In this document: piece after piece, positions 37 through 17,359 of the stretch
How positions within the stretch are numbered: position 1 is the first letter of the stretch
How the letters are laid out: each line of letters starts with the position of its first letter
Source of the DNA: Synechococcus elongatus PCC 6301
GTDB taxonomy: Bacteria; Cyanobacteriota; Cyanobacteriia; Synechococcales; Synechococcaceae
NCBI RefSeq assembly: GCF_000010065.1
Contig: NC_006576.1
Span: 1,560,001-1,592,000, forward strand
Direction: 5' to 3'
Length of the DNA: 32,000 bases
The notes under the pieces: model-generated
The model's database searches: none
Told to the model about the DNA's origin: nothing
Seen by the model: the letters and a program-made list of their open reading frames with translations, nothing else
Made by a program: the position numbers and the translations under genes

Positions 37-582
37 ATGCCAACTGAGTTACGAGCAACGGCGATCGCAGGCGTGCTGGAACTCATTAGTCAGCCTTTTC
101 AGGATCATCGAGGTGCTTTTCTCAATGCTTTTCGGGAACAAGAGCCTGCGTTTGCAGAAGCTTGGGGAGACCGCAGGATTGCCCAAGTGAATCTGAGCCG
201 AACTGACAGAGTTGGAGCGATTCGGGGGCTACATTTGCAAGCAGCACCTCACAGTGAAGCAAAGCTCGTTCGTTGTCTACGAGGACGGGTGTGGGATGTT
301 GCAGTTGATCTGCGGCAGGATTCTGCAACCTATGGCCAATGGCAAGCAGTAGAACTATCTCCTGAGCAAGCTAATGCACTACTGATTCCTGAAGGCTGTG
401 CTCATGGTTTCCAGGTGCTCGAAGCCAATAGCGAATTACTCTATCTGCATTCTGGGACTTGGGTACCAGAAGCCGAGACGGGCATTCGTTGGGACGATCC
501 TCAACTGGCGATCGCTTGGCCGCTGCCGATGTCTGAACTAAGCGATCGCGATCGCGCTTTACCGTTTCTCTCGGGATTATGA
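37..582 (+). CDS. dTDP-4-dehydrorhamnose 3,5-epimerase-like cupin (RmlC family NDP-sugar epimerase)
   Basis: 181 aa. RmlC-type motifs: DHRGAF, NLSRT..GAIRGLHLQ, KLVRCLRGRVWDVAVDLR, LLIPEGCAHGF. Native GC with four HIP1 sites. Its stop overlaps the next start (ATGA at 579-582). Confidence 0.8.
   Translation: MPTELRATAIAGVLELISQPFQDHRGAFLNAFREQEPAFAEAWGDRRIAQVNLSRTDRVGAIRGLHLQAAPHSEAKLVRCLRGRVWDVAVDLRQDSATYGQWQAVELSPEQANALLIPEGCAHGFQVLEANSELLYLHSGTWVPEAETGIRWDDPQLAIAWPLPMSELSDRDRALPFLSGL
542..555. repeat. HIP1 (GCGATCGC) palindromes; two overlapping copies shown as an example
   Basis: gcgatcgcgatcgc. The same octamer recurs about 3-4 times per kb in 12.6-25.7 kb and 28.1-32 kb. It is almost absent from 556-12650 and from 27215-28166. 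Confidence 0.95.
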
Positions 583-1811: not shown

Positions 1812-1814
1812 TTT

Positions 1815-2942
1815 ATGGCTAAGCAATCCTATCGGAAAATTCCTTACACCAAGCCTTCAATTACTGAGCTGGAGATTCAATATGCAACTGATGCAGCCCG
1901 AAACGGCTGGGGTGAACATTGCTATGACTACATCATCCGCTTTGAAGAAGCATTTAAACAACACCTAGGTGTGCAATATGCCATTGCAACCAGTAGCTGT
2001 ACTGGTGCTTTGCACATGGGTATGCATGCTTTAGGGATTGGTCCTGGTGATGAGGTGATACTGGCCGATACGAATTGGATAGCTACTGCAGCTCCAATTA
2101 TTCATCTCGGGGCTATACCAGTCTTTGTGGATATTTTGCCGGATAGTTGGTGTTTAGATCCTGAGCAAGTTCAAGCTGCTATTACACCTAAGACAAAGGC
2201 AATCATAGCAGTGCATTTATATGGAAATCTTTGTGAGATGGATGCTTTGCTGGCAATCGGAGAGCGATACAGCATTCCTGTTATTGAAGATGCAGCCGAG
2301 GCAATTGGGTCGGTCTATCACGGTAAGCGGGCAGGTAGCATGGGTCGCTTCGGAGCATTCTCATCTCATGGTACCAAGACCATTACAACTGGTGAAGGCG
2401 GGATGTTTGTCACCAATGATCCGGAACTATATGAACATGTTCTAACGCTTTCTAATCATGGAAGAGCTCGCGGGCAGACTAAGCAATTTTGGCCTGACAT
2501 GGTCGGCTTTAAGTACAAAATGAGTAATATCCAAGCTGCAATTGGCTATGCTCAAATGCAACGCATCGAGATTCTTATACATATGAAACGTAAAATCTTT
2601 TCGATGTATCAGAACTATCTTAAGGATCTCCCAGTTCAAATGAATCATGAGCCTAGAGGCTGTACGAATGGGTACTGGATGCCAACATTTGTGGTTAACG
2701 AAAAAGTTTCTTTTAATCGCAATAAGTTGATTAGCAAGCTGAAATCAAATGGGGTGGATGCTAGGGTGTTTTTCTGGCCTCTTAGCTCAACATCAACCGG
2801 AGGCCGTAAAGCCTTAGATAAGCCTTACCTTTCAGAAAGCATTCATCTACATGCACTAAATCTTCCTTCTCACTACCAACTTAGCAATGAAGAAAGTATG
2901 TTTATTTGCACTCTTATAAAGAATACATCCTTTTCTGGGTAA
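1815..2942 (+). CDS. DegT/DnrJ/EryC1/StrS-family PLP-dependent NDP-sugar aminotransferase
   Basis: 375 aa. ATSSCTGALHMGMHALGIGPGDEVI and the PLP-lysine motif FSSHGTKTITTGEGGM. It starts 3 nt after the preceding stop. Confidence 0.85.
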   Translation: MAKQSYRKIPYTKPSITELEIQYATDAARNGWGEHCYDYIIRFEEAFKQHLGVQYAIATSSCTGALHMGMHALGIGPGDEVILADTNWIATAAPIIHLGAIPVFVDILPDSWCLDPEQVQAAITPKTKAIIAVHLYGNLCEMDALLAIGERYSIPVIEDAAEAIGSVYHGKRAGSMGRFGAFSSHGTKTITTGEGGMFVTNDPELYEHVLTLSNHGRARGQTKQFWPDMVGFKYKMSNIQAAIGYAQMQRIEILIHMKRKIFSMYQNYLKDLPVQMNHEPRGCTNGYWMPTFVVNEKVSFNRNKLISKLKSNGVDARVFFWPLSSTSTGGRKALDKPYLSESIHLHALNLPSHYQLSNEESMFICTLIKNTSFSG

Positions 2943-2976
2943 TCTAGAGAATAGTTTACTGCATACTTGAAACAAA

Positions 2977-3660
2977 ATGAATACAAACTGCATTAGGAAT
3001 CTCATTCATGATCTCAAGTCAAGTGACCACACTAGCTTCTCGAAGATGAGAATACAAATACTCAATGATGATGGCGAAAGAGTTGGTTATCTTATACCAA
3101 TAAATAAGCATCTGGCAAGTAATCCTTTTGTCATACAGAAACTGACTAAGTGGCGAAAGATGTTTAAAAAATACTTTCTAACTCAATTCACACCTACAGA
3201 AAACAGAACAAAAAGCTGGCTAGAATCTGTAGTTCTACCAAGCGGCAACAGAGTATTGTTTTTGATATATACATCTAGTAATGACATCATAGGTAATTTC
3301 GGAATTTGCGATTTAAGCGAAGAAAAAGCAGAACTGGATAACTTAATTCGCGGAGAGAAAGGAGGCCACCCACAGCTAATTTACTTTGCTGAACTATCTC
3401 TCCTAAGATGGCTTTTTTATGACCTTTGTATTCCCAAGGTGTGCTTGCATGTTTTCTCGAATAACTACAAAACAATTTCACTCCATGAGAGTGTAGGTTT
3501 TCGCACAACTGCGAGTTATTCCCTAGCTAAAGAAGAGCATTTAGATGAAATCAAGTATACTCCTTGTGAGGTTTTTGATAGTAATTTTAGCGAGTTCTCC
3601 TACTTAGAGATGACCCTTATTGCTTCGGAGTTCAAAAAAATCCATGAGTGTTTAAGATAA
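2977..3660 (+). CDS. GNAT-like (RimJ/RimL/PseH-like) acyltransferase, putative amino-sugar N-acyltransferase
   Basis: 227 aa. Pattern WRKMF..F...T.E.T..WL, then IGNFGI.., E..NLIRGEKGG, then V.LHVFSNNYKTISLHESVGF resembles the GNAT fold. Assigned from pattern memory only; very AT-rich. Confidence 0.45.
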   Translation: MNTNCIRNLIHDLKSSDHTSFSKMRIQILNDDGERVGYLIPINKHLASNPFVIQKLTKWRKMFKKYFLTQFTPTENRTKSWLESVVLPSGNRVLFLIYTSSNDIIGNFGICDLSEEKAELDNLIRGEKGGHPQLIYFAELSLLRWLFYDLCIPKVCLHVFSNNYKTISLHESVGFRTTASYSLAKEEHLDEIKYTPCEVFDSNFSEFSYLEMTLIASEFKKIHECLR

Positions 3661-3692
3661 AGTGCTAATCGTTACAACCTCCCCATTACAGG

Positions 3693-4460
3693 ATGAAAAC
3701 TCCTCAAGAACTTGCATTTCAAGCTGAGAAGGCAACCTTAGTGGCACAGCAGGGCGAGAACCAAAAAGCTCGTGAGCTCGCCTTAGAATTTCTAAATGAA
3801 ACTGGAAATACAAAATATGCCTACCACTTTTCTTGGATAAACAGGCCAATAGTACAGCTACCTCAAGACATTGTCGCTTTTCAAGAAATTGTTTCCTCTG
3901 TTCAGCCAGACATTATCATCGAAACAGGGGTTGCCCATGGTGGCTCCCTCGCTTTGTCGGCTTCACTGCTATGCCTGCTAGATGTTATGGAAGGCTTAAA
4001 CCCGCGTCAGTCTAGCCGTAAAGTCATTGGTGTTGATATTGAGATTCGTCCCCACAATCGCAAGGCATTAGATGAGCATCCCTTACGATTCAAGATGGAG
4101 CTCATTGAAGGATCGTCGATCGATCCCAAAATTATTCAACAAGTAAAGAGTCATGTACAAAGCTCAGAACGGGTCTTAGTATCGCTCGACTCAAACCATA
4201 CTCATGAGCATGTGATGGCTGAGCTAAATGCCTACGCTAGTTTAGTCACTGCAGGTAGCTATTGTATCGTTTTTGATACTGTAATTGAAGATTTACCAGC
4301 AGGCTCTTTTCCCGACCGGGCTTGGGATGTAGGCAATAATCCTAAAACTGCTGTGCACGAATGGCTGAAGAGTCATCCTGAATTTGCGATCGATAAAGAT
4401 ATTGATAACAAACTACTGATCAGTGTTGCTCCAGATGGATATCTAAAACGGATTTTTTGA
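3693..4460 (+). CDS. CmcI/cephalosporin-hydroxylase-family SAM methyltransferase (sugar O-methyltransferase-like)
   Basis: 255 aa. FSWINRPIVQLPQDIVAFQEIVSSVQPDIIIETGVAHGGSLALSA is the hallmark CmcI-family N-terminal core. Confidence 0.7.
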   Translation: MKTPQELAFQAEKATLVAQQGENQKARELALEFLNETGNTKYAYHFSWINRPIVQLPQDIVAFQEIVSSVQPDIIIETGVAHGGSLALSASLLCLLDVMEGLNPRQSSRKVIGVDIEIRPHNRKALDEHPLRFKMELIEGSSIDPKIIQQVKSHVQSSERVLVSLDSNHTHEHVMAELNAYASLVTAGSYCIVFDTVIEDLPAGSFPDRAWDVGNNPKTAVHEWLKSHPEFAIDKDIDNKLLISVAPDGYLKRIF

Positions 4461-4530
4461 ACGTATGTAAAATTTAAATTTCTTGAAATATTAACTGTTA
4501 AACTCCTACAAGAACAACGAATGCAGTTAA

Positions 4531-5679
4531 ATGACAAAATTTTCTATTATTATTCCCACACGAGAAAGGGTAGGAACCCTTCTCTATACTCTTCCTGCTT
4601 GCCTCAGAGTTGAGCGCGACGATATTGAGTTCGTCGTTTGTGATAACTATAGTCAAGATGGCACAGCAGATTATTTAAAGTCTATTCAAGACCATCGCGT
4701 CAGGATATATCGTACTAATCAACGACTTTCTATGAAAGATAACTTTGAGCATGGGCTTGCGCGTGCTCAAGGTGAATATATTTGTTTTATGGGCGATGAC
4801 GATCTAATTATCCCAAGTCTTTTTCCACTTGTCGAAAAAGAACTAGAAAATGTAGAAACTGTTTGCTGGAATCGCTGGGTTTATTATTGGCCTGACTCCT
4901 ATGAATCACCTAATATGCTGATAGTTAATAATAATAATTTTAGTGTTATCTTAAGCTCGTCAAGGGCTTTAGATTTTGCCCTGCGATACTTCTTAAACTA
5001 TCAGAACTTACCATCTCTCTACAACTCATTTACCCATCGAAAAATCGTTCAAAGAGTTATTAATTATAACTGTCTAAACTTAGAAACTGAAAAATTTTAT
5101 CCTCAAGATGCAATTTCTCCTGATGTATTTTCTGCTTTGCAAATACTCAAATTTACCAATAGTTTTGCTCATATAGGACTACCTTTAACAGTTTCAGGCA
5201 TATCTAGTTCAAGTAATGGAGCAGGAGTTAGGAATAACTCTGAGGAATCAAAAAAGTTCATTCAAGAGTTAAAAGTCGAGAAGCTTAGTGATTTATTGCA
5301 CGTTTCTTTGTCAGCATTATTAACCCAGAAGATATCATATTACATAACTAATTTAAGTGATTATATAAGCTTTATCATAAACTATATACCAGAAACCTTG
5401 CAAGAAGATATATTTCTTGATCTGATTGCATCTGGATGTAGAACATTATTTGATATCGGGGATATTGATGCCGATACAGCAACTCAGTTTATGGCTGGTT
5501 ATGATATTTCCCCGTGGGTGGTAAATGGGAGGCTCAACTTGATGGATCAGGGATTTTATACCTTGTTTAGAGTTCCTATGTTCAATAGAGTAGTTATTAA
5601 TGGTGATGAACATAGTCTTAGTAACTCTCTTAATGCATCAGTATTCTTAGATGATTATTTCAGCTCTTTAATATATTGA
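4531..5679 (+). CDS. Family 2 glycosyltransferase
   Basis: 382 aa. FSIIIPTRER, VVCDNYSQDGT, GEYICFMGDDDLI (GT-A DxD region). Confidence 0.75.
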   Translation: MTKFSIIIPTRERVGTLLYTLPACLRVERDDIEFVVCDNYSQDGTADYLKSIQDHRVRIYRTNQRLSMKDNFEHGLARAQGEYICFMGDDDLIIPSLFPLVEKELENVETVCWNRWVYYWPDSYESPNMLIVNNNNFSVILSSSRALDFALRYFLNYQNLPSLYNSFTHRKIVQRVINYNCLNLETEKFYPQDAISPDVFSALQILKFTNSFAHIGLPLTVSGISSSSNGAGVRNNSEESKKFIQELKVEKLSDLLHVSLSALLTQKISYYITNLSDYISFIINYIPETLQEDIFLDLIASGCRTLFDIGDIDADTATQFMAGYDISPWVVNGRLNLMDQGFYTLFRVPMFNRVVINGDEHSLSNSLNASVFLDDYFSSLIY

Positions 5680-5852
5680 ATAATTACCAACAGATTAGTT
5701 GGCACAAAATTCATCTTTTACTAATCTTTCATGGGTCGACATCATTAAATAAATGCATCAATTTTTAAGGTTATAGGGATTTTATTGTGGTTCGGTTGAA
5801 AGCATCTAATTGTGGAACAATATAAATAAATCTTTTTGGGAGTAGCTAAAAA

Positions 5853-6371
5853 ATGAGATTACATATTGGTGGAAGAGAAAAGCATCCGGATTGGAAAATT
5901 TTTGATGCTCTAGAACGACCAGAAGTTAACTTTGTTGGTAATGCAGCTGATTTAAGCCAGTTTGCAGATGACTCGATCGAAGCAATTTATGCAAGCCATG
6001 TGCTAGAGCATTTTCATCATTCACTAGGAAATGAGCTAGTTTCAGTCTTGCTAGAGTGGAGACGGGTCCTACTACCAAATGGAAAGCTATATATTAGCGT
6101 ACCAGATTTACAGACCTTAAGTTGGCTCTTTTTAAGCCCAATGGCCGGATTTCAGCACCGCCTACAGATTATGCGGATGATGTTTGGAGGACAGGTTGAT
6201 CAATATGATGTTCATAAAGTTGGGTTTGACTGCGAGATTCTATTTACATATCTGCAAGCAGCTAAGTTTTCGGACTATGAGCGAGTTGAGAACTTTGAAC
6301 TCTTCCAAGATTGTAGTAATTTAGTATTTTTGGGGTACCCAATTAGCCTTAACGTCGTTGCAGTTAAATGA
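5853..6371 (+). CDS. Small class I SAM-dependent methyltransferase (type 11-like)
   Basis: 172 aa. LHIGGREKHPDWKIFD, DDSIEAIYASHVLEHF, RVLLPNGKLYISVPD. Confidence 0.6.
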   Translation: MRLHIGGREKHPDWKIFDALERPEVNFVGNAADLSQFADDSIEAIYASHVLEHFHHSLGNELVSVLLEWRRVLLPNGKLYISVPDLQTLSWLFLSPMAGFQHRLQIMRMMFGGQVDQYDVHKVGFDCEILFTYLQAAKFSDYERVENFELFQDCSNLVFLGYPISLNVVAVK

Positions 6372-6375
6372 ATCT

Positions 6376-8277
6376 ATGAGTACTCAGGACAACAGTTTGG
6401 CAGAAAATTATTACCAACAAGCGATCGAGCAATGGAAGTCTAGAGATCAGAAACAAGCACTTCAATTTTTTAAAAAAGCAGTGAGAGCAAAGCCAAGTAA
6501 TGCTCATTATTGGTATGCACTGGCTGGAACATACCATATACAGAACAAGTTTCGTGCAGCTCGCTTTTGTTTTGAAAAGTCACTTAATTTAAATCCTAAT
6601 CAAGATGAAATCAAAATTTTTCTGTGCGAAATATGTTATTTACTAACAGATTATAAATCTGTCGCTTATTATGCTGGACAAGTAGATTTGAGTAAAATTC
6701 AAAATTTAGAGATCTTATATAAAGTTGCGTGCTCTTTTAAAGAACTTGGTCAGCTGGAGAAAACTGGTCAAGTCTGCTCTCAAATTTTGTCATTAGATGA
6801 TAACTTTTGGCAGGCAAAACTACTTGCTGCTGAGATACTAAGAATAAAGGGTTATTCAGGAGAAGCTAAAGTATTAGTTTTAGAATTAATAGACCAACAA
6901 CCTACCGTCGGTAAATTTTGGAATGAACTCGGTATTAATGAAGTTGATCTAGCTCATGAAGATGAAGCTTTATCCGCATTTTCTAAAGCTGAGCAATACG
7001 TATCTGGACCGGAGAAACTAATTATAGGAAGTAATTATTTATTTGAATTTTCTAGTGGGCTTAGAACAGCTAAAGATATTTTAGATGCACATTTACTTTG
7101 GAATAAAAAATATTGTAAAGATCAAGGTGGAAGTTTTCAATCAAGCAAGTTCAATTATTTAAAATCAAATGATAAAAAAAACATTGCCTATCTCTCGGGT
7201 GATTTTAAAACACATTCCGTAAGTTATTTCATTGAAGGAATTTTGGAGAATCACTCACGGGATGCGTTTAATATTATCTTGCTCTCGAATACTCAAGAGG
7301 ATGAAAAGACAAAAAAATTTAAGGAGTTAGCAGATATCTGGATTGACTTAAAGTTAACTAATTTTGAAACAGCTGCTCAGATTGTTAAAAGGCTAAATAT
7401 TGATATTCTTATTGAGCTTTCTGGACATACAAATGGTAACAAACTGAATCTTTTAAGTTCAAGACTAGCACCGGTTCAAGCTACTTATCTTGGCTACTTT
7501 GCTACAACAGGATTATCAACAATAGATTATTGGATAACAGACAATGTTGTTCACCCTGCTCACACTGTAGAGTTAGCAACAGAAACTATTTTTCGACTAC
7601 CACGGTGCTACTTGGCTTACACGCCACCACCTCAATCACCTAGTATCGCAGAGTCTCCAGTTATTAAAAATGGATATATTACATTTGGCTCTTTCGTTGC
7701 AAGTCGAAAGATTAGTGACTATTCAATCCTACTGTGGTCTTCTATCTTAAGTGAGATTCCGAATAGTCAGCTTTTAATTAAGAACCGAAGTTGCGTTAGC
7801 CCATTGTACCGCTCTGAGCTAATAGAAAAGTTTTCACTCTGTGGCATTAGTTCTCAGCGAATTAACTTCAACGAGGCTAAATTGAACTTAGAAGATCATC
7901 TTGCACTGTATAACAAGGTTGATATTGCACTTGATACCTATCCAGCGAGTGGCTGTACAACCACTGTCGAAGCACTCTGGATGGGTGTCCCAGTCTTAAC
8001 TCGCCTTGGTGAATTAATGGTTAGCCGTAATAGTGCTTCTTTGCTCCATGCACTCAATCTCCAAAATTGGATTGCAGAAACAGATGAAGAATACATTGAT
8101 AAGGGTATCAAATTTACTCAATCCATCGAACAGCTTGCCCTGTTAAGACAGGGTATGAGAGAGCGATTTATGCAGTCTGAACTCTATGATTCTAGGGGTC
8201 TCACCCTCCACCTAGAAGACTTTTATCTAAAAGCCTTACAGGAGAAGTTGAGCGCCAATAAAGAAGTTAGATTTTGA
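6376..8277 (+). CDS. TPR-repeat + GT41 (O-GlcNAc transferase / SPINDLY / HMW1C-like) glycosyltransferase
   Basis: N-terminal TPR-like repeats (AENYYQQAIEQW..AHYWYALAGTY..FEKSLNLNPNQ). C-terminal GT41 signature: IAYLSGDFKTHSVSYF, IDILIELSGHTNGNKL, APVQATYLGYFATTGLSTIDYWITD. The ORF track starts at a TTG (6358) that overlaps the previous gene; I prefer the in-frame ATG at 6376. Confidence 0.8.
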   Translation: MSTQDNSLAENYYQQAIEQWKSRDQKQALQFFKKAVRAKPSNAHYWYALAGTYHIQNKFRAARFCFEKSLNLNPNQDEIKIFLCEICYLLTDYKSVAYYAGQVDLSKIQNLEILYKVACSFKELGQLEKTGQVCSQILSLDDNFWQAKLLAAEILRIKGYSGEAKVLVLELIDQQPTVGKFWNELGINEVDLAHEDEALSAFSKAEQYVSGPEKLIIGSNYLFEFSSGLRTAKDILDAHLLWNKKYCKDQGGSFQSSKFNYLKSNDKKNIAYLSGDFKTHSVSYFIEGILENHSRDAFNIILLSNTQEDEKTKKFKELADIWIDLKLTNFETAAQIVKRLNIDILIELSGHTNGNKLNLLSSRLAPVQATYLGYFATTGLSTIDYWITDNVVHPAHTVELATETIFRLPRCYLAYTPPPQSPSIAESPVIKNGYITFGSFVASRKISDYSILLWSSILSEIPNSQLLIKNRSCVSPLYRSELIEKFSLCGISSQRINFNEAKLNLEDHLALYNKVDIALDTYPASGCTTTVEALWMGVPVLTRLGELMVSRNSASLLHALNLQNWIAETDEEYIDKGIKFTQSIEQLALLRQGMRERFMQSELYDSRGLTLHLEDFYLKALQEKLSANKEVRF

Positions 8278-10813
8278 TATGATGAGCAATCGCACCCATC
8301 ATTTTTTTGATTTGTATTTCCCAAGACATTGTTTGGTGTATGGAAACAGAGTGGCTTAATGCTTTAGTTTTCTGTTCTTGGTAATTCTGATAAACCTTCT
8401 CTAACCATGCAACTACTTCTTCTGGGTCAGATTGTCCCCAACCTTCCGTGCCAACATAGGGATAGTAAGGTTTGACAGGGTTTTGAGTTTCCAGAGCGTC
8501 AATCCCAAATAAGTGGATGAGGTCTAGATGACCTGTATTTTTGGAGAGTAAGGTTGGGATTCCACAGGCGATCGCCTCCATCGCCACTAAGTTGGTTCCA
8601 CCCTCTGCCCGATTCGGGAAGATGGCAGCATGGGCTTCTCGAAAGACATGGGGCATTTGAATATTGGGTGTAAAGCCTAAGCAGTAAAAAGAATCTTCTG
8701 GCAAGCCATTCTCAATCAGCCATTGACTAATGTTTGATCTGAGGTCACCTTCTGTTTTGGGTAAGCCCTCTACATAGCCAGCATGTTGAAGGCCATTCAT
8801 ATATTGAGGCAATGCAGTACTCCAATTACAAAGCAATAAAGCCTCTGGGTGCTGTTGTTGGAAGTGTTTAAAAGCTTTAACAACAATATCCTGTCCTTTG
8901 CGATACTCTAGTTTGCCGCCTGAAAAGATGACAAACCGATCGCCAAAATAGCCAGCTGCTTGACTTGGCTGAAAGAGCGTAGGGTCTACACCTTGAGGAA
9001 TACCATAGGCATTGCCTTGATAATGTGCAGCGACTAGATCATTACACCATGTTGAACCAGAGATAATCACAGGCAAACGGTTAGCTCTCTCTTTTCCTGA
9101 GGGTGTTATATACGTGTCTTCCATAAAAATTAAGCCAGCCCTATGAGTAAAGGGAAATTCATACTCCCTAGACTGGAAATCATTCATCATTGCCTGCAAG
9201 ATCAGCAATTTCTGATTAAGTCCCTGATTGAGTCGCTTTAGTACATAATTATCATTCTCAGGATCTAAAACTGGGAGATCTAAAACTTGTGGATCAACTA
9301 GTGGATGGAAATCTTGGACATTTAAGTAAGGACTTTTGAGACAAATAGGAAACCATGACCCCTTTTGACGATAAATCTGAAGGATAAAATTAGTTCCGAA
9401 GACTCCCCAGCCCGTATAAGTTGAGATTAGCCAATCAAACGCGATTCCTCTTTGTTTCTTCTTGTTACAGTTACTTATAACTCTCTCTAAATCAGAATCT
9501 GGCTGAACATTATTGAGGATATTTGTCTGATCTTTTTCAAAAAGAGTAATAAAGTTCTTGACAGAATTTTCAGCAAACCGAATCTTATTTAACAAGAAAT
9601 TAATTTTGGTTAGTCTCAGATTACTTTCAAGCTGTAAGTCATCTGAGTTATTGTTTTCTAAATTGGCAGCTTCTGCAAGTGGACTTTGAAACTTGCGCAG
9701 TTGTCGGTCTAAACTATTGTTCGGATAGCGCTGGTATTGTACTGTTTCAACATCAATTTGAACACCATTGCAAAATCGATAAAGACAATCTCTCAGTGCA
9801 ATATCCTCTGTACATCTGAGCCGTTTATAAACTAACTGAGAAGGAAATCCCTCAACAAACTGAAAGACTGATCTTCTAACTACTAAATTGATTGGTAAAG
9901 AGTCTATGATTCGCTGATGCCACTCTGGCAATATCTCTTCGTCTACCTTGACCCCTAAGCTTACAAAGCCATAGGGCGGATGACCATTAATATTTCGGAT
10001 GAACTTGGTAACGTCTTGATCGAGTGAAATGCCCGCATATTCAAACAGCCGATCTAAAATCTGAGGCTCGTCGAGTGAAATCTCCAAGGCTAGCACGCCT
10101 AGAAGGAGATGTTTTTCTAAGAAGAGATCATCCCCATCGCAGAAAAAGAGAACTTCACCTTGGCTAAAATTGACGCCAGTGTTTCGTGCGATGCCAGCTC
10201 CCCGATTGAAGCGATGACAAACAAGCTGAAAATGAGTTTTGTTGTTAATGTAAGCTTGAATAACAGCAACCGTGTTATCCGTCGAAGCATCATCAACAAT
10301 GATGACTTCTATGTTATACAAGCTAGAGAAAGGCAAATTATCTTGGAAAAATTGAATCGACGCTTCAATACTTTTTAATGTCTGCTCAATTTTAGAAGCA
10401 CAATTATAGGTTGGAACAATGACAGCTAGCGACTGGGCTGAAGGTTGCCAATGTTGTGGAAACTGGTGTAGGCAATTGATTAGCTGGGTTGCTAATGGTT
10501 CAGGGATACGCTGTAAATCAGTATTCTGCTTTACAGTCTGCAAACAAGATTGATTGCGCTCTAGCAACGCACCGAGCAACCCAGTCTGACAATCTGTGCC
10601 ATGGCAGGCAATTTCTTCAATATTAACGCCATTTTCGCTGGCTGCCCAAGCCGCTTCAATCAGCGCTGTGTTGACTTGTTCTTCCTCAGTACCTGCCGTA
10701 TCAATCAACAGACTGGCTGTTTCCTGAGTGACTTGTTGCAGTGCTGCACTGATTTGCAGGACTGCTTTTTGATCAGGAGAAGCCCAATGCGGACGGAGCC
10801 AAAGAAGAGCCAT
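8267..10813 (-). CDS. Bifunctional glycosyltransferase: unknown N-terminal ~130 aa + GT2 domain + C-terminal GT1/GT4-type (GT-B) domain
   Basis: 848 aa. GT2: AVIVPTYNC, IIVDDASTDNT, GEVLFFCDGDDLF. GT-B: GWGVFGTN and FPNRAEGGTNLVAMEAIACGIPT. Its 3' end overlaps the convergent GT41 gene by 11 nt. Confidence 0.75.
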   Translation of the reverse strand: MALLWLRPHWASPDQKAVLQISAALQQVTQETASLLIDTAGTEEEQVNTALIEAAWAASENGVNIEEIACHGTDCQTGLLGALLERNQSCLQTVKQNTDLQRIPEPLATQLINCLHQFPQHWQPSAQSLAVIVPTYNCASKIEQTLKSIEASIQFFQDNLPFSSLYNIEVIIVDDASTDNTVAVIQAYINNKTHFQLVCHRFNRGAGIARNTGVNFSQGEVLFFCDGDDLFLEKHLLLGVLALEISLDEPQILDRLFEYAGISLDQDVTKFIRNINGHPPYGFVSLGVKVDEEILPEWHQRIIDSLPINLVVRRSVFQFVEGFPSQLVYKRLRCTEDIALRDCLYRFCNGVQIDVETVQYQRYPNNSLDRQLRKFQSPLAEAANLENNNSDDLQLESNLRLTKINFLLNKIRFAENSVKNFITLFEKDQTNILNNVQPDSDLERVISNCNKKKQRGIAFDWLISTYTGWGVFGTNFILQIYRQKGSWFPICLKSPYLNVQDFHPLVDPQVLDLPVLDPENDNYVLKRLNQGLNQKLLILQAMMNDFQSREYEFPFTHRAGLIFMEDTYITPSGKERANRLPVIISGSTWCNDLVAAHYQGNAYGIPQGVDPTLFQPSQAAGYFGDRFVIFSGGKLEYRKGQDIVVKAFKHFQQQHPEALLLCNWSTALPQYMNGLQHAGYVEGLPKTEGDLRSNISQWLIENGLPEDSFYCLGFTPNIQMPHVFREAHAAIFPNRAEGGTNLVAMEAIACGIPTLLSKNTGHLDLIHLFGIDALETQNPVKPYYPYVGTEGWGQSDPEEVVAWLEKVYQNYQEQKTKALSHSVSIHQTMSWEIQIKKMMGAIAHHIKI

Positions 10814-10898: not shown

Positions 10899-11333
10899 AT
10901 GTCTGACTCCCTCCGTCTTCGTTATCTACAATATCTTGCCCAGCGTAAAGACGAACAAGGTGAAGAAGAAAAAGGTTTTACCCTTGTCGAGTTGCTGGTC
11001 GTTATCATTATCGTTGGCATCTTGGCAGCAGTTGCATTACCGAACCTGTTGGCTCAAACAGATAAAGCCTATGCCTCTGAAGGCAAATCAGCAGTCGGTG
11101 CTGCTCTTCGTACCCTTAGTGCGGCGACACTAGATCCTAACTACGTCACCAATGCGTCTTGTACACAGCTTGGTATTGGTAGCAGTGCAGGTAACTTTAA
11201 CATAACTTGCGGCAATGCTAGCCAAGTAACGGCTGCTGGAAGTGGTAAAGCAGCGAATATTAACGTGACTGGCACAATCGGGACAGACGGTAAATTTACC
11301 GTTATTGCAACCAAAGGCAGCGCAACTCTTTAA
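10899..11333 (+). CDS. pilA: Type IV pilin (prepilin), copy 1
   Basis: 144 aa. Class III signal peptide ...EEEKG|FTLVELLVVIIIVGILAAVALPNLL with Glu at +5. Long 26-aa charged leader. C-terminal Cys88-Cys104 pair. Confidence 0.9.
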   Translation: MSDSLRLRYLQYLAQRKDEQGEEEKGFTLVELLVVIIIVGILAAVALPNLLAQTDKAYASEGKSAVGAALRTLSAATLDPNYVTNASCTQLGIGSSAGNFNITCGNASQVTAAGSGKAANINVTGTIGTDGKFTVIATKGSATL

Positions 11334-11483: not shown

Positions 11484-11521
11484 TTGTATAAGCTATCTCT
11501 ATATTGAGAGGGTCACTCAAA

Positions 11522-11956
11522 ATGTCTGAATCGCTCCGTCTACGTTATCTGCAATATCTTGCCCAGCGTAAAGACGAACAAGGTGAAGAAGAAAAAGGTT
11601 TCACCCTTGTCGAGTTGCTGGTCGTTATCATCATCGTTGGCATCTTGGCAGCAGTTGCATTACCGAACCTGTTGGCTCAAACAGATAAAGCCTACGCCTC
11701 TGAAGGTAAATCAGCAGTCGGTGCTGCTCTTCGTACCCTTAGTGCGGCGACACTAGACCCTAACTACGTCACCAATGCGTCTTGTACACAGCTTGGTATT
11801 GGTAGCAGTGCAGGTAACTTTAACATAACTTGCGGCAATGCTAGCCAAGTAACGGCTGCTGGAAGTGGTAAAGCAGCGAATATTAACGTGACTGGCACAA
11901 TCGGGACAGACGGTAAGTTTACCGTTATTGCAACCAAAGGCAGCGCAACTCTTTAA
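11522..11956 (+). CDS. pilA: Type IV pilin (prepilin), copy 2
   Basis: 144 aa, identical to copy 1 except D3E. The start is set at the ATG homologous to copy 1; the ORF-track start at 11504 is a TTG extension. Confidence 0.9.
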   Translation: MSESLRLRYLQYLAQRKDEQGEEEKGFTLVELLVVIIIVGILAAVALPNLLAQTDKAYASEGKSAVGAALRTLSAATLDPNYVTNASCTQLGIGSSAGNFNITCGNASQVTAAGSGKAANINVTGTIGTDGKFTVIATKGSATL

Positions 11957-11970
11957 CAGAGTATTTAACA

Positions 11971-12009
11971 GTTTTTAGGAATTCGGGATATTCCCAAATT
12001 CCTAAAAAC
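11971..12009. terminator. Hairpin between convergent pilA copy 2 and the GT47-TPR-GT9 gene (putative bidirectional terminator)
   Basis: gtttttaggaattcggga / tcccaaattcctaaaaac pair at 17 of 18 positions with a 3-nt loop. It overlaps the stop codon of the minus-strand gene (12002-12004). Confidence 0.5.
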
Positions 12010-14368
12010 TTGAAAGCAGATGGGCAAAGTAACAAAGCTCTATAGAAGAGTACCAAGTTAATTCCAAGTTTTGCTGCCATCTCCAATCTGGTGGGTAAGC
12101 AAGAAGAACTTTTGCTGGTGTTCCCATTGCCCCTGCCAAATGCACGATCGCAGTATCCACCGTCACCAGTAGATCCAATTCCATCAACACCCGAGCCGTT
12201 GCTGAAAAATCCACCAAGCGATTGCTCCAATCCTGAATCCCTTCCGGTAACCTACCCTCATACCCCAACTGCAGACTCACCACTTCCAGATCTGACCTCT
12301 GCATACTTTCTCGCACCAGCTCCAACATTGCTTCTAGCGAACAGCTGCGCCGATCCGCTGTCGCACTCTTTTGTATTCCTGCCCGCTGACCCGCCAGCCA
12401 AACAATTCCAACCCGAAACTTGTGGTTTTGATCCTCACGAGGCGGTGGCAACGGACAAGGCAACCAACCCTCGCGATAGGGAATATCTTTTAAGCTCGGC
12501 CACACCAACCGAGGCAACGACAGCAACGGCACCTGAAAATCAAATAATTCTTCCGTTATCTGTGCCGGAATCACCTTAATGCCCAAACTTGCCAGCGGCT
12601 CCGCAAACAACGGCACTAGTACCGCATCCGTCTGGAACTGAATACGAGCCTGCGGATAGCGATCGCGCAGCACCCACAAGTAGCGACTGAACTGAATTTG
12701 ATCGCCATAGCCCTGCTCTCCCCACACCAATAGCGATCGCTGACCCAGCTCTACCCCCTGCCATCGTGGTTGCGGATAATGCGCCGCCAACGCTGCCAAA
12801 CTCGGCTCCGCAGCAAAGCGAGCTTCATAGATATCCCAACCTTCTGCCTTGCCCTGCCGCAACAAAATTTCTGCGATCGCCAGCTGAGCATTTGCTCGTT
12901 CTGGTTCTCGCGCCACCACCTGCTGATATAGCGATAGCGCCTGATCATACCGACCTGCCAAATTGAGCGTATCAGCTTGTAGCAGTAGGCGATCGATCGC
13001 TGCCGGTACCTCTTCTAGTAGTGCTTGACTAAGAGCTAATGCCTCTTCCCACTGTTCCTGCTGCCGCAACGCCACACAAAGATTGGTGCGCAATTTTGGA
13101 TGGTGGGGCTGTGCCTGCAATCCCTGTCGATAGATTGCGATCGCCGTATCCCATTCCCCGAGTTGCGTTTGCGCCACCCCCAGCAAGTTGTAATGCTCTC
13201 CCTGCTCTGCCTCCGGCATCACCATGGAATCCAGTAAGGCCAATGCTGCTTTGGGTTGCTGTTGCGTCAACGCTAAGCGTGCTTGCTCTAAAATCCGAGC
13301 TGGCGACCGGGGCAGTGTTGCCAAATAAGTTGCGGCTGCTTCCAGATCTCCCTTAAGTCGATACCGTTCCGCCTGAGACAACAACACCGCCTCAATCTCT
13401 ACCTCTGACGCAGAAGGATGAAGCGATCGCTGATCCAAGATTTGCCACAGCGTCTGCACCTGTCGTGCCAAAGAATAGAAATAGTGCTGATAAACCTGTT
13501 GCAAATGCTGCTGCATCACCTGCCATTGATCCGTTGAAATCGCTTGAAGGAGCTGCGGTAATTCCCAACAGCGATCTTCAGCAACAGATAGCGAAAACTC
13601 TGACCAATCCAGCAACTCCGAAAACGGTAGCACCCAATCATCAGCCAAAATGACCGGAATCGCCCCGCCTGCCATCACCTCTAGCAAGCGATAGGAAAAA
13701 ATATCATGGCCACGTGGAGCTACAGAAAAGCGCGATCGGGCAATTAAATCTGTATAGACTTGTTGCTCAGCGCTTAGTCCCTCAGCCTCATCCACATAAT
13801 TCAACGTCCCCCAATAGCTTTGCTGGATCAGCTCAGCTGCAATCTCGGGTGGCTGATGAAGCCGTTGTAATTGCTCCCGCACCGGATGACTATTAGCTCC
13901 CCGAAAACTGAGTAAAGTTGAGCGATCTCGGCTTGGATAGCAATGCTGATCTAAGAGTGGCATCGGAGGAAAACTCACATCAATGCCAACGCGATAGTTT
14001 CCCAGTGTATGGCAATGACTCACCACCACCACATCCGGCAATACCTGTGCGATCGCTGGCCACTGTGCCAATGGATTCATATTGATTAGCACCAAGGGCT
14101 TGCCATAGCCACTGACCGGATGATCAAACAGAAACGCTAAAATTTCTTCATCTGTTGGAAAGCGATCGCCCTTTAAAATCGCCTTACGTTGCGATCCGTA
14201 ATACGGCCAGTTGGTCTCTAGGGCAAAATCTGCATCCAGAAAAATATAGTCTGCCTGCTCAACCTTTTCAGTCCGTGCCGGATGATGTTTGAGAACAGTA
14301 AAGAAGCGATCGTGCCAAACCGTTCGAAATGACCAATCCCCAGCTTCAGCTAGATAAAAATAAGCCAT
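12002..14368 (-). CDS. Three-module protein: N-terminal exostosin-like (GT47) domain, central TPR repeats, C-terminal GT9-like (heptosyltransferase-fold) domain
   Basis: 788 aa. GT47-like: SRFSVAPRGHDIFSYRLLEVMAGGAIPVILADDWVLPFSELLDWSEFSLSV. TPRs: AIAIYRQGLQAQPHH, ALSLYQQVVAREPE. GT9-like: LLVWGEQGYGDQIQFSRYL, VTVDTAIVHLAGAMGTP, DWRW. Confidence 0.75.
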   Translation of the reverse strand: MAYFYLAEAGDWSFRTVWHDRFFTVLKHHPARTEKVEQADYIFLDADFALETNWPYYGSQRKAILKGDRFPTDEEILAFLFDHPVSGYGKPLVLINMNPLAQWPAIAQVLPDVVVVSHCHTLGNYRVGIDVSFPPMPLLDQHCYPSRDRSTLLSFRGANSHPVREQLQRLHQPPEIAAELIQQSYWGTLNYVDEAEGLSAEQQVYTDLIARSRFSVAPRGHDIFSYRLLEVMAGGAIPVILADDWVLPFSELLDWSEFSLSVAEDRCWELPQLLQAISTDQWQVMQQHLQQVYQHYFYSLARQVQTLWQILDQRSLHPSASEVEIEAVLLSQAERYRLKGDLEAAATYLATLPRSPARILEQARLALTQQQPKAALALLDSMVMPEAEQGEHYNLLGVAQTQLGEWDTAIAIYRQGLQAQPHHPKLRTNLCVALRQQEQWEEALALSQALLEEVPAAIDRLLLQADTLNLAGRYDQALSLYQQVVAREPERANAQLAIAEILLRQGKAEGWDIYEARFAAEPSLAALAAHYPQPRWQGVELGQRSLLVWGEQGYGDQIQFSRYLWVLRDRYPQARIQFQTDAVLVPLFAEPLASLGIKVIPAQITEELFDFQVPLLSLPRLVWPSLKDIPYREGWLPCPLPPPREDQNHKFRVGIVWLAGQRAGIQKSATADRRSCSLEAMLELVRESMQRSDLEVVSLQLGYEGRLPEGIQDWSNRLVDFSATARVLMELDLLVTVDTAIVHLAGAMGTPAKVLLAYPPDWRWQQNLELTWYSSIELCYFAHLLSSF

Positions 14369-14375
14369 GCAGCCA

Positions 14376-15719
14376 TCAAGCCTGAGTCAGAAACAGGCAC
14401 TGATCGCGTTCTAACTCAGCTAAGAAATTCCAAACCAACTCCGCTACTGCTTCCAACTCCCAAAGCTCACCCGTCACATAATCCAACGGTTGCAACTGTT
14501 GGAAGCGCTGTACCAACTCCTGCACAGACAGCACCTTCTCAAACAGGGGCTTAATCAACGCCCCAAACAGCGGCTCATAGGTCAACAGCCCCAAAAACTC
14601 CCCATGCAACGCCCGCGCCAAACTAAAGCGCTCTCGCAACTTCAGCTTCTCCTGCAACTGCTGCTCAATCCCCGATGTTGCCAACTGAGGATGCAACTGA
14701 ACCTTTAGCCCCAACCGTTGCTCTAGAGGTAAATTCTCCCAAGCTTGGGTAGGGGCTAACGGCTGCAGACTACACCAGAAATCAAACAGGCGATTGACCG
14801 GATGCAACAGGTCGTACAAATAAGCCTGATCCAGCAAACTCGCTTCCTGGATGCCTAATGCCCAAAACGCCGGAATTTGATCGCGATCGCCAAACAACTC
14901 ACTCAGCCGCCACAGCGGGGCTTGCACCATACCCAAAAATTCCAGCCCCGCAGTCTCCAAATACTGCCGCAGGTCTGGAACGCCATAACCCTTATCCGCC
15001 TGCAACAACAGATTTGCTAATAGCCATTGTTCGAGTTCATCTTGTTTCTCTTCTTTTTGCAGTTGTAGGGGCAGGTTCCAGACCGCAGCCCGACTCAAAA
15101 CCCCTGGTTGCAGCGCATTCATTAACTCTGTCACTGCTTCCATTTCTGCCGCCTCTGGATTGCCATCCAGAAATCCTAGAAACTTGAACAGTTCCTGTAA
15201 GCGGTAATGAGCAATTCGTTGATTCTTAGAGTGTAAATTGGCGCGAATAATCCCATCAGGCTTTAGCACCGCTTTCATTTGCCCCAGCGCTGCTGCAGGA
15301 TCATCAAAAAAATAGAGCAGCTCATCACAATTGATATAGTCAAATGCGATCTCGAGCTGACCAATCTCATCCAGCCCCAGCGCATAGAACTTGACTTCGG
15401 GGAAGCCCTGAAACTTGAGTCGCTCCTGCGCTAGCTCCACCGACTTCAGCGATAGATCCACCCCAATAATTTCAGCGCCTGGATTGGCTAGCGCCAGCAT
15501 CAACGTCTTGTAGCCGCTGCCACAACCCACATCTAGAATGCAAGCGCCTTCGGTTGCTTTCAGACTGCGATCGCGCCGATAGAAAGCCGAACGAATATCG
15601 TGAATCGCCAGCGCCCCATAGTTTTCCTTGGGCGTTGCCTCCAACGGCACCCGTGGATAGGGCCCATAGTCAAACTGCGCACGGATCCGTTCCAAAGCCT
15701 CAGATGACAGTGAAGACAT
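14376..15719 (-). CDS. Class I SAM-dependent methyltransferase with ~270-aa C-terminal extension of unknown function
   Basis: 447 aa. Motif I ILDVGCGSGYKTL, IIGVDLS, VLKPDGII. AGGAG Shine-Dalgarno element just upstream of the ATG. Its stop lies 7 nt before the next gene start. Confidence 0.75.
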   Translation of the reverse strand: MSSLSSEALERIRAQFDYGPYPRVPLEATPKENYGALAIHDIRSAFYRRDRSLKATEGACILDVGCGSGYKTLMLALANPGAEIIGVDLSLKSVELAQERLKFQGFPEVKFYALGLDEIGQLEIAFDYINCDELLYFFDDPAAALGQMKAVLKPDGIIRANLHSKNQRIAHYRLQELFKFLGFLDGNPEAAEMEAVTELMNALQPGVLSRAAVWNLPLQLQKEEKQDELEQWLLANLLLQADKGYGVPDLRQYLETAGLEFLGMVQAPLWRLSELFGDRDQIPAFWALGIQEASLLDQAYLYDLLHPVNRLFDFWCSLQPLAPTQAWENLPLEQRLGLKVQLHPQLATSGIEQQLQEKLKLRERFSLARALHGEFLGLLTYEPLFGALIKPLFEKVLSVQELVQRFQQLQPLDYVTGELWELEAVAELVWNFLAELERDQCLFLTQA

Positions 15720-15955: not shown

Positions 15956-17359
15956 CTAGTAGGGTCTAGAATTCAAATCCTGCTGCAGTTGCTCAAAGAC
16001 CGATCGCCAATCCCCAGCAATCGCCTGCCGATAGAGCCGCATTGATTGATACCAAGGGGTTTCTGACCCAGTCAGACTCCAGCGCCAATCTGCGAATTTG
16101 GGCAGAAGCAGCCAAGTCGGAATCTCCAAAGCACCTGCCAAATGCGCGATCGCAGTATCCACTGTAATCAGGAGATCCATCTGATTGAGTACAGCGGCAG
16201 TATCGGCAAATGAGTGCATTCGATCAGCGAGATCACAGTCTGCCCAATCCCAGTTCTGGAGGAGTGATTGACGAGCCGGGCCTACTTGCAGGCTCCAAAA
16301 CTGACAATGATTCACCTGCAATCGCAACTGAAGAAATTGCTCTAGCGGCACACTTTTACTAGCTTGTCGCCATTGATAGCGGCGATCGCTGGTCTCTCCA
16401 GCCTGCCAAACAAAGCCAACCTGCAGCTGACGAGGATTGGCTTGGAGTCTGATCTCAGATTGCAGCGATCGCGGCAGATATCCCTGAGCGAGTGGAATTA
16501 CGTCAGCCGTGGCACCGAGTCGTTCAGGCAATGACAACAGTGGCAGATGAAAGTCGTAGGCTGATTCAGTCTCAAAAGTGAATTGGGTAGCAACTTGTAG
16601 ATTAGCGATCGCCAATTGTCGGAATAAATCGACCAATGGCTCACTAACGAGTAATAAGAGCGGTGTTTCTGGCCAGCGATCGTGCAAGACAGATAAGTAG
16701 CGGACAAACTGAATTTGATCGCCGTAACCTTGTTCGCCCCAAATCAATAGCGTTTTATTAGTGAGATCCTCGCCTTGCCAGAGGGGGCAACCAAAACTGG
16801 GGAGGCGATCGCGTAGCTCTGAAAACACCAGCAACCGACTCTCATACTCTGGCGAACCTTGCGACCAATCGCCCAGACCTAACCGCAACTTACTGCGCAG
16901 GAACTGCGACTCAGCGGCTGTCGGATCGAGTTGCAAAGCGCTATCGCAACTCGTTAAAGCCTGTGGCCAGTCCCCCAAACTCTGTAAGGCAACAGCTCGC
17001 TGATGCCAGAGGTCTGCCGTTTGTTCTGAAGCCTGATCGAGCAGAGCGATCGCTTCAGCAAATTGACCTTGCTCATTGAGAACAGCCGCCCAAGCTGCGA
17101 TCGACTGAGGGCAACCGGGCTGGAACTCTAGTACTGCTTGATAAGCCGCGATCGCTTCTTCAGGTTGTCCAGCCGCTGCTAACCAATCTCCCCACCGGCA
17201 CAAAATCTGAGGATTGTCGGGTTCCTGCCAAGCGGCCAATTCAATCAGTTGCAGCGCTGTTGACCAGTCTTGTTGACTCGCGGCCTGTTCAGCCCACTGC
17301 TGCAACTGCACTACAGATGCGGTTTCAAGATCACCAAGAGCAAGCTCTATCAATTGCAA
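15956..17359 (-). CDS. TPR-repeat + GT9-like glycosyltransferase-fold protein (paralog of the C-terminal two-thirds of 12002..14368)
   Basis: 467 aa. TPRs (AIAAYQAVLEFQPG, ALTSCDSALQLDP). LLIWGEQGYGDQIQFVRYL, ITVDTAIAHLAGALEIPT, DWRW. No in-frame ATG near the 5' end (TTG at 17359, GTG at 17311), so the start is uncertain. Confidence 0.7.
   Translation of the reverse strand: MQLIELALGDLETASVVQLQQWAEQAASQQDWSTALQLIELAAWQEPDNPQILCRWGDWLAAAGQPEEAIAAYQAVLEFQPGCPQSIAAWAAVLNEQGQFAEAIALLDQASEQTADLWHQRAVALQSLGDWPQALTSCDSALQLDPTAAESQFLRSKLRLGLGDWSQGSPEYESRLLVFSELRDRLPSFGCPLWQGEDLTNKTLLIWGEQGYGDQIQFVRYLSVLHDRWPETPLLLLVSEPLVDLFRQLAIANLQVATQFTFETESAYDFHLPLLSLPERLGATADVIPLAQGYLPRSLQSEIRLQANPRQLQVGFVWQAGETSDRRYQWRQASKSVPLEQFLQLRLQVNHCQFWSLQVGPARQSLLQNWDWADCDLADRMHSFADTAAVLNQMDLLITVDTAIAHLAGALEIPTWLLLPKFADWRWSLTGSETPWYQSMRLYRQAIAGDWRSVFEQLQQDLNSRPY

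Follow-up and report, generated by a model that had tools for sequence, protein, structure and literature searches.

A GT47-TPR-GT9-like fusion protein encoded beside the pilA1 genes of Synechococcus elongatus is a candidate two-step glycosyltransferase

A 32,000-nucleotide stretch of the genome of Synechococcus elongatus PCC 6301 (NC_006576.1, positions 1,560,001 to 1,592,000, hereafter the window, whose numbering is used throughout) was analysed around the gene Synpcc7942_0047 (0047; genes of the same series are likewise given by their last four digits). It was found that 0047 encodes a real, rare and uncharacterised tri-modular glycosyltransferase (GT), in which a GT47 or exostosin-type domain, a tetratricopeptide repeat (TPR) arm and a GT9-like domain are joined in one chain; as principles, the guidance of GTs by TPRs and the fusion of several GTs are not new. 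The genes on its downstream side encode the type IV pilin PilA1. By analogy with known TPR-guided enzymes, 0047 might be a cytoplasmic, two-step bifunctional GT for the glycan of the PilA1 pilin; this is our preferred reading, and we regard the case for it as evenly balanced.

The gene identity and coordinates of 0047 were provided by the supplement of Simkovsky et al. (PMC9260433), in which the 2,367 bp of the gene are exactly the length of the open reading frame (ORF); in its tables, 0046 is called methylase-like and 0045 is given as another TPR protein. Public labels of 0047 are 'TPR repeat-containing protein' or 'exostosin domain-containing protein'. The motifs quoted in an earlier reading of this DNA, which was made from its letters only (the sequence-only reading), were all present in the ORF of 788 amino acids (aa): SRFSVAPRGHDIFSYRLLEVMAGGAIPVILADDWVLPFSELLDWSEFSL, LLVWGEQGYGDQIQFSRYLWVL, VDTAIVHLAGA and DWRW. 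An identical 788-aa ORF was found in nine member sequences, and homologues with the frame kept occurred in three further S. elongatus lineages, at 76–78% identity and with ORFs of 778–791 aa. Because the frame is conserved in these three lineages, neither an assembly error nor a frameshift accounts for the fusion. The alternative that it arose by a sequencing or assembly frameshift, or is a pseudogene of two former genes, could draw on one S. elongatus strain in which the two parts are separate genes, but it is effectively refuted by the conserved ORFs, by the fact that 0047 is transcribed and regulated (hundreds to about a thousand reads per sample in the PMC9260433 tables), and by the AF2 models, in which the N-terminus and the TPR arm (modelled as part of the whole protein) and the C-domain (modelled on its own) fold confidently.

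No signal peptide or membrane segment was predicted in 0047, and the protein is predicted to be soluble and cytoplasmic. The full-length AF2 (AlphaFold2) model, made with a mixed alignment, had a good N-domain and TPR arm and a poor C-domain, with a predicted local distance difference test score (pLDDT) below 50 over much of residues 530–788 and a predicted template modelling score (pTM) of 0.56 for the whole. Because the C-domain was poor in this model, no conclusions were drawn on the inter-domain geometry. When the literature was searched for 0047 and its neighbours 0046 and 0045, and for exostosin in connection with cyanobacteria and pili, none of these genes turned up in a main text; they occurred in supplementary tables only.

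The N-terminal ~330 aa had been read as GT47, and this assignment was borne out. Pfam Exostosin_GT47 (PF03016) matched residues 117–277 with an E value of 1e-26 and 94.4 bits against a cut-off of 33.4, the match spanning only the C-terminal lobe of the profile (positions 134–293). By phmmer against the PDB sequences, the N-domain retrieved EXT1 and EXT2 with E values of about 1e-14. When the AF2 model (pLDDT mostly 85–97 over residues 1–320) was submitted to Foldseek, the top 16 matches were EXT2, EXT1 and EXTL3, the nearest solved folds, with E values of 2e-15 to 2e-11 over 333–358 aligned columns. In an alignment with 23 bacterial relatives (about 315 aa), all 25 of the 25 invariant columns of the bacterial GT47 subfamily were kept in 0047, including ETNWP.Y, F.G..SHP.R and PRG...FSYRLLE...G..P....D....PF. 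The GT47 C-lobe signature P-x-G...S-x-R-x-x-E...G-x-I-P-V...D...P-F...W was recognized in APRGHDIFSYRLLEVMAGGAIPVILADDWVLPFSELLDW of 0047, and its columns were invariant across the bacterial subfamily. Both the sequence tests and the predicted fold thus place the N-domain in GT47.

It had also been stated that GT47 is uncommon in bacteria, which agrees with the searches. A word-index protein search gave 31 relatives of the N-domain, nearly all of them stand-alone proteins of ~315 aa and one a GT47-TPR protein. When 185,579 species, each represented by one genome, were scanned in a pattern-limited way, 28 loci were obtained, which were mostly from Alphaproteobacteria, with two from Prochlorococcus, one from Scalinduaceae and one from Verrucomicrobia. 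TPR-GT9-like genes were located within 7 kb at 4 of the 28 loci and were fused to the GT47 gene at none.

In the middle of the protein, Pfam TPR families matched between residues 393 and 509, and the AF2 model exhibited about 11 helices at residues 321–509 (pLDDT 87–97). These correspond to five to six repeats, close to the six or so that had been counted from the sequence. Consensus-TPR and OGT-TPR structures were matched by this region in the PDB sequence search and in Foldseek. The likeness to OGT was confined to the TPR region, and the GT41 catalytic domain (PF13844) was not matched.

For the C-domain, an AF2 model of residues 515–788 obtained with 123 homologues reached a pLDDT of 91 and a pTM of 0.90. 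Its Foldseek matches were 1psw (WaaF), 6dfe and 2h1h (WaaC), 3tov (Veillonella GT9) and 4rap and 4rb4 (TibC), with E values of 7e-7 to 1e-4 and TM-scores of 0.49–0.57. At the sequence level, Pfam Glyco_transf_9 (PF01075) gave 19.0 bits, under the cut-off of 22, over residues 720–751 only, and a GT-only family profile (A2) retrieved no GT9 chain from the PDB even at E values up to 10. The profile search with a TPR-containing alignment (A1) was swamped by TPR proteins and was uninformative on the GT domain. The domain was placed near GT9 by the fold search alone. The GT9-like label of the sequence-only reading thus stood as far as the modelled GT-B fold is concerned, with WaaF, WaaC and TibC as the nearest structures, but it failed as a statement of sequence-level membership; the C-domain is best described as GT9-like by predicted fold and as a separate family by sequence. 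The seven invariant columns of the 123-sequence alignment were all kept in 0047 (Q552, G555, D556, R562, D738, H743 and R763). By eye, G555-D556 after the first strand and D738-T739...H743-L-A resemble what we take to be the catalytic 'GD' and the nucleotide-sugar 'DTGxxHLAAA' motifs of GT9.

Like the proteins of the NCBI 'TPR repeat-containing glycosyltransferase family', 0047 has TPRs followed by a ~270-aa domain with EQG(F/Y)GD, VDTAxAHLAGA and PDWRW motifs, and its GT9-like domain was 33–40% identical to those of more than 100 family members. Judged from these similarities, its TPR + GT9-like unit is a typical member of a TPR + GT9-like family that is very large: 2,418 matches were found among 8,000 candidates scored, and with the full-length sequence as query, 54,542 matches at E ≤0.001, TPR-only matches included, were obtained among 1.84 billion representative proteins. 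The best 150 of these 54,542 were ~970–3,140 aa long, all but one of them with 2–6 tandem TPR-GT9-like modules, and among these 150 only the metagenomic protein P0198 clearly opens with a GT47 domain, in the order GT47-TPR-GT9like-TPR-GT9like. The architecture of 0047 had been called unusual. This holds for the fusion of GT47 with a GT9-like domain, which is rare, although P0198 shows that it is not unique; it does not hold for the TPR + GT9-like unit by itself, which is very common. Modular TPR + GT9-like giants (P0170–P0318) were common in metagenomes, one came from an Oscillatoriales genome (L089, 1005–6743), and no published description of them was found.

A half-size paralog in the neighbourhood had been noted as well, and 0045 was confirmed as such by alignment to residues 340–778 of 0047 (33% identity over 449 aa, E 1e-51). 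With this, the structural reading as a whole was upheld by Pfam, Foldseek and alignment, namely a GT47-type GT-B domain, about five to six TPRs and a GT9-like GT-B domain in one chain, with a TPR + GT9-like paralog nearby. Hundreds of metagenomic family members are at least as close to 0047 as 0045 is (35–40% identity in the GT domain), and because of this 0045 is an old paralog. A recent duplication as its origin was considered and rejected, the identity being only 33–38% and no higher than to unrelated family members. The longest ORF of 0045 opens at TTG, while the public annotation (NC_007604 43572–44927) gives 451 aa, so that the true start is uncertain.

The sequence-only reading did not include the pilin next door, which is the likely acceptor of 0047. 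The pilA1 gene is present as a tandem duplicate, with 10898–11197 and 11521–11820 being 97–100% identical over 300 nt at a spacing of 623 nt. In related strains, one copy was seen in L003 and two in L002. The PilA1 prepilin leader, MSDSLRLRYLQYLAQRKDEQGEEEKG directly before FTLVELL, is unusually long at 25 residues, conserved and charged. Being cytoplasmic until cleavage, it could serve as a putative docking site for TPR enzymes. The stops of 0047 and of the convergent second pilA1 are 45 bp apart, and the hairpin between them (Table 1) had a free energy of −25.6 kcal/mol (z = −7.4 against shuffles); this hairpin is probably a bidirectional terminator. Scans for promoter and terminator consensus sequences at the 0047 locus gave counts no higher than in shuffled sequence.

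The expression of 0047 followed that of pilA1. In the count tables of PMC9260433, both copies of pilA1 share their differential-expression groups, DF5 and O-A4 (down in PilB::Tn5), with 0046 and 0047. From the log2 counts of these tables over 21 samples, the correlation of 0047 with the first pilA1 copy was calculated to be r = 0.96, and that of 0046 with 0047 r = 0.99. The values against the first pilA1 copy were 0.80 for 0050 (with a range of only 2.4-fold), 0.58 for 0045 and 0.07 for ogt.

A natural split form of 0047 was found in S. elongatus GCA_036630115.1. In this strain the GT47 part is a stand-alone 317-aa gene (80% identity to the corresponding part of 0047), which is followed by a separate 550-aa TPR-GT9-like gene with a GC content of 37% and only 34% identity to the C-terminal part of 0047. 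The DNA homology to the window ends at position 13458, that is at about residue 304, the domain boundary. The next genes are a single pilin gene (74% identity overall, with the C-terminal half diverged), a GT2-GT4 gene, and then different genes where ogt would be. Because this one strain carries the two catalytic parts in a natural split form, they would appear to work together, fused or not. As judged from the sequences of the same strain, the TPR-GT9-like part may have been exchanged together with the variable half of the pilin. In the same strain (L001, 16686–19073), the place of ogt and the sugar genes is taken by genes for a 226-aa protein without a Pfam match and for a protein of 558 aa in which a second GT47 domain, different from the first, was recognized (E 1.6e-17).

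Other loci of the family were inspected for genes of surface filaments. A Scalinduaceae locus (L010) contained, in order, genes for TPR-GT9like, GT4-GT2-TPR-GT2, GT47-TPR, GT2-TPR and GT4 proteins and then a flagellin, and a metagenome locus (L043) contained a TylF-GT4-GT2 fusion, two TPR-GT9-like genes, two flagellin genes and FliD. Flagellin genes were found at 4 of 80 metagenomic TPR-GT9-like loci (675 kb in total, ~8 kb mean flank), which by a rough estimate is about ten times the chance level. A set of 117 annotated plasmid records of family members was mostly from Azospirillum, Ralstonia and Burkholderia, and all were labelled 'tetratricopeptide repeat protein'. On a plasmid of Pseudanabaena sp. 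PCC 7367 (L009, 3505–8825), a TPR-GT9-like gene lies just downstream of a gene for a filamentous-haemagglutinin-type exoprotein, an arrangement that recalls the HMW1C and TibC adhesin glycosylation systems.

Table 1. Coordinates of 0047, its domains and the neighbouring features in the 32-kb window
Feature	Position	Strand	Basis or remark
Synpcc7942_0047	12002..14368	-	complete ORF, 788 aa + stop, ATG start; equals NC_007604 46515-48881
GT47/exostosin-type GT-B domain, residues 1-320	13409..14368	-	Pfam PF03016, PDB sequence search, Foldseek
TPR arm, residues 321-514	12827..13408	-	TPR_19, TPR_16, TPR_1 and related Pfam families; AF2 helices
GT9-like GT-B domain, residues 515-788	12005..12826	-	EQGYGD 551-556, VDTAIVHLAGA 737-747, PDWRW 760-764
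Perfect 41-nt palindromic hairpin GTTTTTAGGAATTCGGGATATTCCCAAATTCCTAAAAAC	11970..12010	.	between convergent stops of second pilA1 copy and 0047; overlaps last 0047 codons
pilA1 copy Synpcc7942_0049	10899..11333	+	type IV prepilin, 144 aa, N_methyl motif, 25-residue leader before G/FTLVELL; proposed acceptor
Second pilA1 copy Synpcc7942_0048	11504..11956	+	convergent with 0047; likely ATG start 11522
Synpcc7942_0046, 447-aa SAM-dependent methyltransferase	14376..15719	-	Pfam Methyltransf_31 and related families
Synpcc7942_0045, 467-aa TPR + GT9-like paralog	15956..17359	-	alignment to 0047; Pfam Glyco_transf_9 23.4 bits against cut-off 22
Synpcc7942_0050, 848-aa GT2 + GT4 fusion	8267..10813	-	Pfam
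Ogt, Synpcc7942_0051, TPR + GT41	6358..8277	+	Pfam Glyco_transf_41 E 4.5e-42
Low-GC sugar-nucleotide tailoring block	37..6371	+	RmlC-type 3,5-epimerase, sugar C-methyltransferase, DegT aminotransferase, GNAT acetyltransferase, CmcI-type O-methyltransferase, GT2, methyltransferase (Pfam)

Beyond the pilA1 genes, the window contains ogt, for which Suban et al. (2022; PMC9306852) reported that it is needed for the glycosylation of PilA and for normal piliation and that its product is without a secretion signal. The gene order in that paper (0051 ogt, 0050 hypothetical, 0049/0048 pilA1) is the order in the window. The convergent 0050 and ogt overlap by 11 nt at their 3' ends, and 0050 stood beside a pilin gene in all four of the S. 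elongatus loci examined. The tailoring genes further upstream are the probable donor supply. The GC content was 33–45% across 1000–12000, which covers tailoring genes, ogt, 0050 and the pilin genes, compared with 50–58% elsewhere in the window; the TPR-GT9-like gene that is replaced in a related strain (37% GC) also falls within the low-GC region there. The region 1000–12000 looks like a hypervariable, horizontally exchanged pilin-glycosylation island. No heptose-pathway gene was found within the window, and the same was true of genes for a flippase, a Wzy or other polymerase, an ABC exporter, an initiating phosphoglycosyl transferase and an O-oligosaccharyltransferase.

On the other side of 0047, the stop of 0046 is only 7 nt upstream of the 0047 start, and for this reason 0046 and 0047 probably form one operon. 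The class I S-adenosylmethionine (SAM) domain of 0046 is limited to residues about 50–180, and the remaining ~270 residues had no Pfam match. Lysine trimethylation of pilin has been reported for Synechocystis, and because of this precedent 0046 could methylate the pilin or a sugar. Mutants of 0046 are listed as biofilm-enriched in PMC9260433 (groups TTBG2 and IG6). A role of these genes in anti-phage defence was considered and rejected, as PADLOC gave no match for 0047, 0045, 0050 or ogt and its sole match was the generic methyltransferase 'mad2' for 0046. Just upstream of 0045 is 0044 (17406–19388), which encodes an FAD-dependent oxidoreductase (PF12831) of 660 aa whose N-terminus is hydrophobic, as is typical of signal peptides; this position is conserved in related strains.

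The following course of events is proposed for 0047. By analogy with the TPR domains of FlmG and OGT, the TPR arm would dock PilA1 prepilin or pilin as the acceptor. The GT9-like domain might then attach a sugar either to the protein itself or to the GlcNAc-containing modification that depends on Ogt, and the GT47 domain might add the next sugar, so that two steps of a short O-glycan would be carried out on one bound substrate. Both parent families, GT47 and GT9, are classed as inverting by CAZy. Donors would come from the upstream dTDP-sugar tailoring genes, other steps of the glycan could be supplied by 0045, the GT2-GT4 fusion 0050 and Ogt, and the probably co-transcribed 0046 might methylate a sugar or the pilin. 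Two sequential additions on one TPR-bound protein substrate had already been suggested in the sequence-only reading, and such a scheme would be consistent with all findings.

Several known systems resemble 0047 in part. In its described architecture, FlmG of Caulobacter crescentus and Brevundimonas is alike in that TPRs are followed by a GT-B domain in a soluble protein. It is cytoplasmic and glycosylates the subunit of a surface filament, as is proposed for 0047, and in FlmG flagellin is bound by the TPR region and the choice of donor lies with the GT-B domain (PMC7591256; bioRxiv 10.1101/2022.03.25.485807). The members of the TPR-GT9-like family that adjoin flagellin genes are of FlmG size (535–650 aa), and a relationship of the family to FlmG is plausible from the members encoded directly upstream of flagellin genes; in the papers on FlmG and on Burkholderia FlmQ, the catalytic family is given no finer than 'GT-B'. 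FlmG differs by having one GT domain, flagellin as acceptor and CMP-pseudaminic or CMP-legionaminic acid as donor, whereas 0047 has the extra GT47 domain and pilin and dTDP-sugar genes as neighbours; the window contained no flagellin gene and no nonulosonic-acid pathway of the FlmG type, its sugar genes being of the dTDP type. Ogt also combines a TPR arm with a GT-B catalytic domain and has no secretion signal; it is encoded beside pilA in many cyanobacteria and is needed for PilA glycosylation in S. elongatus (PMC9306852). It has a single GT41 catalytic unit and its expression does not track pilA1, whereas 0047 has GT47 and GT9-like domains and its expression does track pilA1.

The nearest solved folds to residues 515–788, the autotransporter heptosyltransferases TibC/Aah and the GT9 enzymes WaaC and WaaF, share only about 12–14% identity with 0047. 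They are without a TPR arm and use ADP-heptose, whereas 0047 has a TPR arm and there was no sign of ADP-heptose use. TibC, an iron-containing dodecamer, is an example of a GT9-type fold that O-glycosylates serines of a protein in the cytoplasm. EXT1/EXT2, the GT47 + GT64 heparan-sulfate co-polymerase (about 16–22% identity), likewise carries a GT47 domain and a second, unrelated GT domain, and its pairing couples two different transfers. The likeness of 0047 is limited to this combination, since EXT1/EXT2 is eukaryotic, Golgi-lumenal and membrane-anchored, has a GT-A second domain (GT64), acts on a growing polysaccharide and is without a TPR arm. Also similar are the uncharacterised multi-module TPR + GT9-like proteins, many with 2–6 units and 1,000–3,100 aa, among which P0198 opens with GT47; compared with these, 0047 is compact, with one GT47 and one GT9-like domain, and is the only one found beside pilin genes.

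Several observations weigh against the proposal that 0047 glycosylates pilin in two steps. Sec exports the part of a type IV pilin that carries the glycan, whereas 0047 has no export signal, and the same unsolved puzzle exists for Ogt. Characterised GT47 and GT9 enzymes mostly use glycan or lipid-linked acceptors, TibC being the protein-modifying exception. No report of a PilA mass change or of an enzyme activity for 0047 was found in the literature. At 76 of the 80 metagenome loci, and at the loci L004–L006, L008 and L038, the TPR-GT9-like genes had no adjoining pilin or flagellin gene; an ORF with the pilin motif was found at 0 of the 80, and no flagellin or pilin gene was seen in the contexts inspected for family members of Burkholderia ambifaria, Pseudanabaena and a Ralstonia megaplasmid. 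In the random-barcode transposon sequencing biofilm screen (PMC9260433), 0047 is in group F3, apart from ogt and pilA1. Besides, the published lists of genes whose cofitness with ogt or sigF1 is ≥0.89 include none of 0047, 0046 and 0045, and because of this absence the loss of 0047 would not phenocopy pilus loss, which implies that 0047 is not needed for piliation as such. The sub-threshold Pfam score of the C-domain and the lack of GT9 chains in its profile search belong here as well, as does the family 'DFADTAA' motif, in which a fairly conserved Asp is Ala in 0047 (A723), in a column conserved in only 70% or more of the sequences.

Two other explanations share some of this evidence. In one, 0047 is bifunctional but acts on a lipid-linked or polysaccharide glycan (exopolysaccharide, O-antigen-like or S-layer) or on another protein, and the TPR arm only assembles a multi-enzyme complex. 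It stays a serious rival because of the topology, the cofitness, the family context and the usual acceptors of the parent families: a cytoplasmic enzyme could not reach the exported pilin domain, 0047 lacks the strong cofitness with pil genes that ogt and sigF1 show, and the surroundings of most family members include no pilin or flagellin gene, with one member beside the filamentous-haemagglutinin gene. In addition, the folds match EXT1/2 and WaaC/WaaF, with GT47 generally extending polysaccharides and GT9 acting on lipid A-core, and the island with its dTDP-sugar tailoring genes, GT2 and GT2-GT4 fusion resembles an O-antigen or exopolysaccharide sugar cluster. Against this rival, a flippase, polymerase, ABC exporter and initiating phosphoglycosyl transferase were missing from the window; Ogt of the same island is needed for PilA glycosylation, 0047 expression tracks pilA1 (r = 0.96), the TPR-GT9-like module and the variable half of the pilin change together in another strain, and like module sets stand directly upstream of flagellin genes elsewhere. 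On balance a non-pilin acceptor is somewhat unlikely. The other explanation keeps one GT domain catalytic and makes the other a degenerate GT-B domain that binds nucleotide-sugar, glycan or substrate in a regulatory or lectin-like manner, as reported for the GT47 domain of EXT2; inactive GT47 domains occur in both EXT2 and EXTL3. In its favour are the score of the C-domain below the Pfam GT9 cut-off, its Ala at the fairly conserved Asp, and a shortened C-terminus that departs from the family consensus PWYPSMRLFRQ...GDW. However, the residues strictly invariant in each family are intact in both GT domains of 0047, both domains are ~78% identical across S. elongatus lineages without any disruption of the frame, and the column of A723 is also Q, E or V in other TPR + GT9-like members, so that a single active domain is quite improbable.

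If the proposed two-step glycosylation of PilA1 is right, it bears on how pilins are modified in cyanobacteria. In a 2025 review, pilin O-glycosylation is described only via periplasmic oligosaccharyltransferases (PMC12645811), and in a 2025 review of cyanobacterial pili, Ogt is the sole pilin GT named (PMC12288463). Cyanobacteria seem to use soluble TPR-linked enzymes for pilin glycosylation instead. A wider idea, which we consider doubtful, is that 0047 is the compact prototype of an 'assembly-line' class, in which TPR arms would hold pilin or flagellin while 2–6 GT-B modules of a single chain attach one sugar after another, so that the glycan would be encoded by the kinds of module and their order. 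If true, 0047 would be the first GT47 enzyme from bacteria to have a defined role, and direct evidence that soluble enzymes build a type IV pilin glycan step by step, with no en bloc transfer by an oligosaccharyltransferase. A fused two-step protein GT with a natural split variant would, if true, be a possible tool for glycoengineering. The pilA1 island of this genetically tractable model contains more GTs than the published Ogt, namely 0047, 0045 and 0050, together with a methyltransferase and a donor-sugar pathway. With these enzymes, the complete glycan of the pilin could be accounted for, along with the way it is tied to piliation and to the suppression of biofilms, and a role could be assigned both to a GT47 lineage of bacteria that is rare and to the TPR + GT9-like family, which is very large and unstudied.

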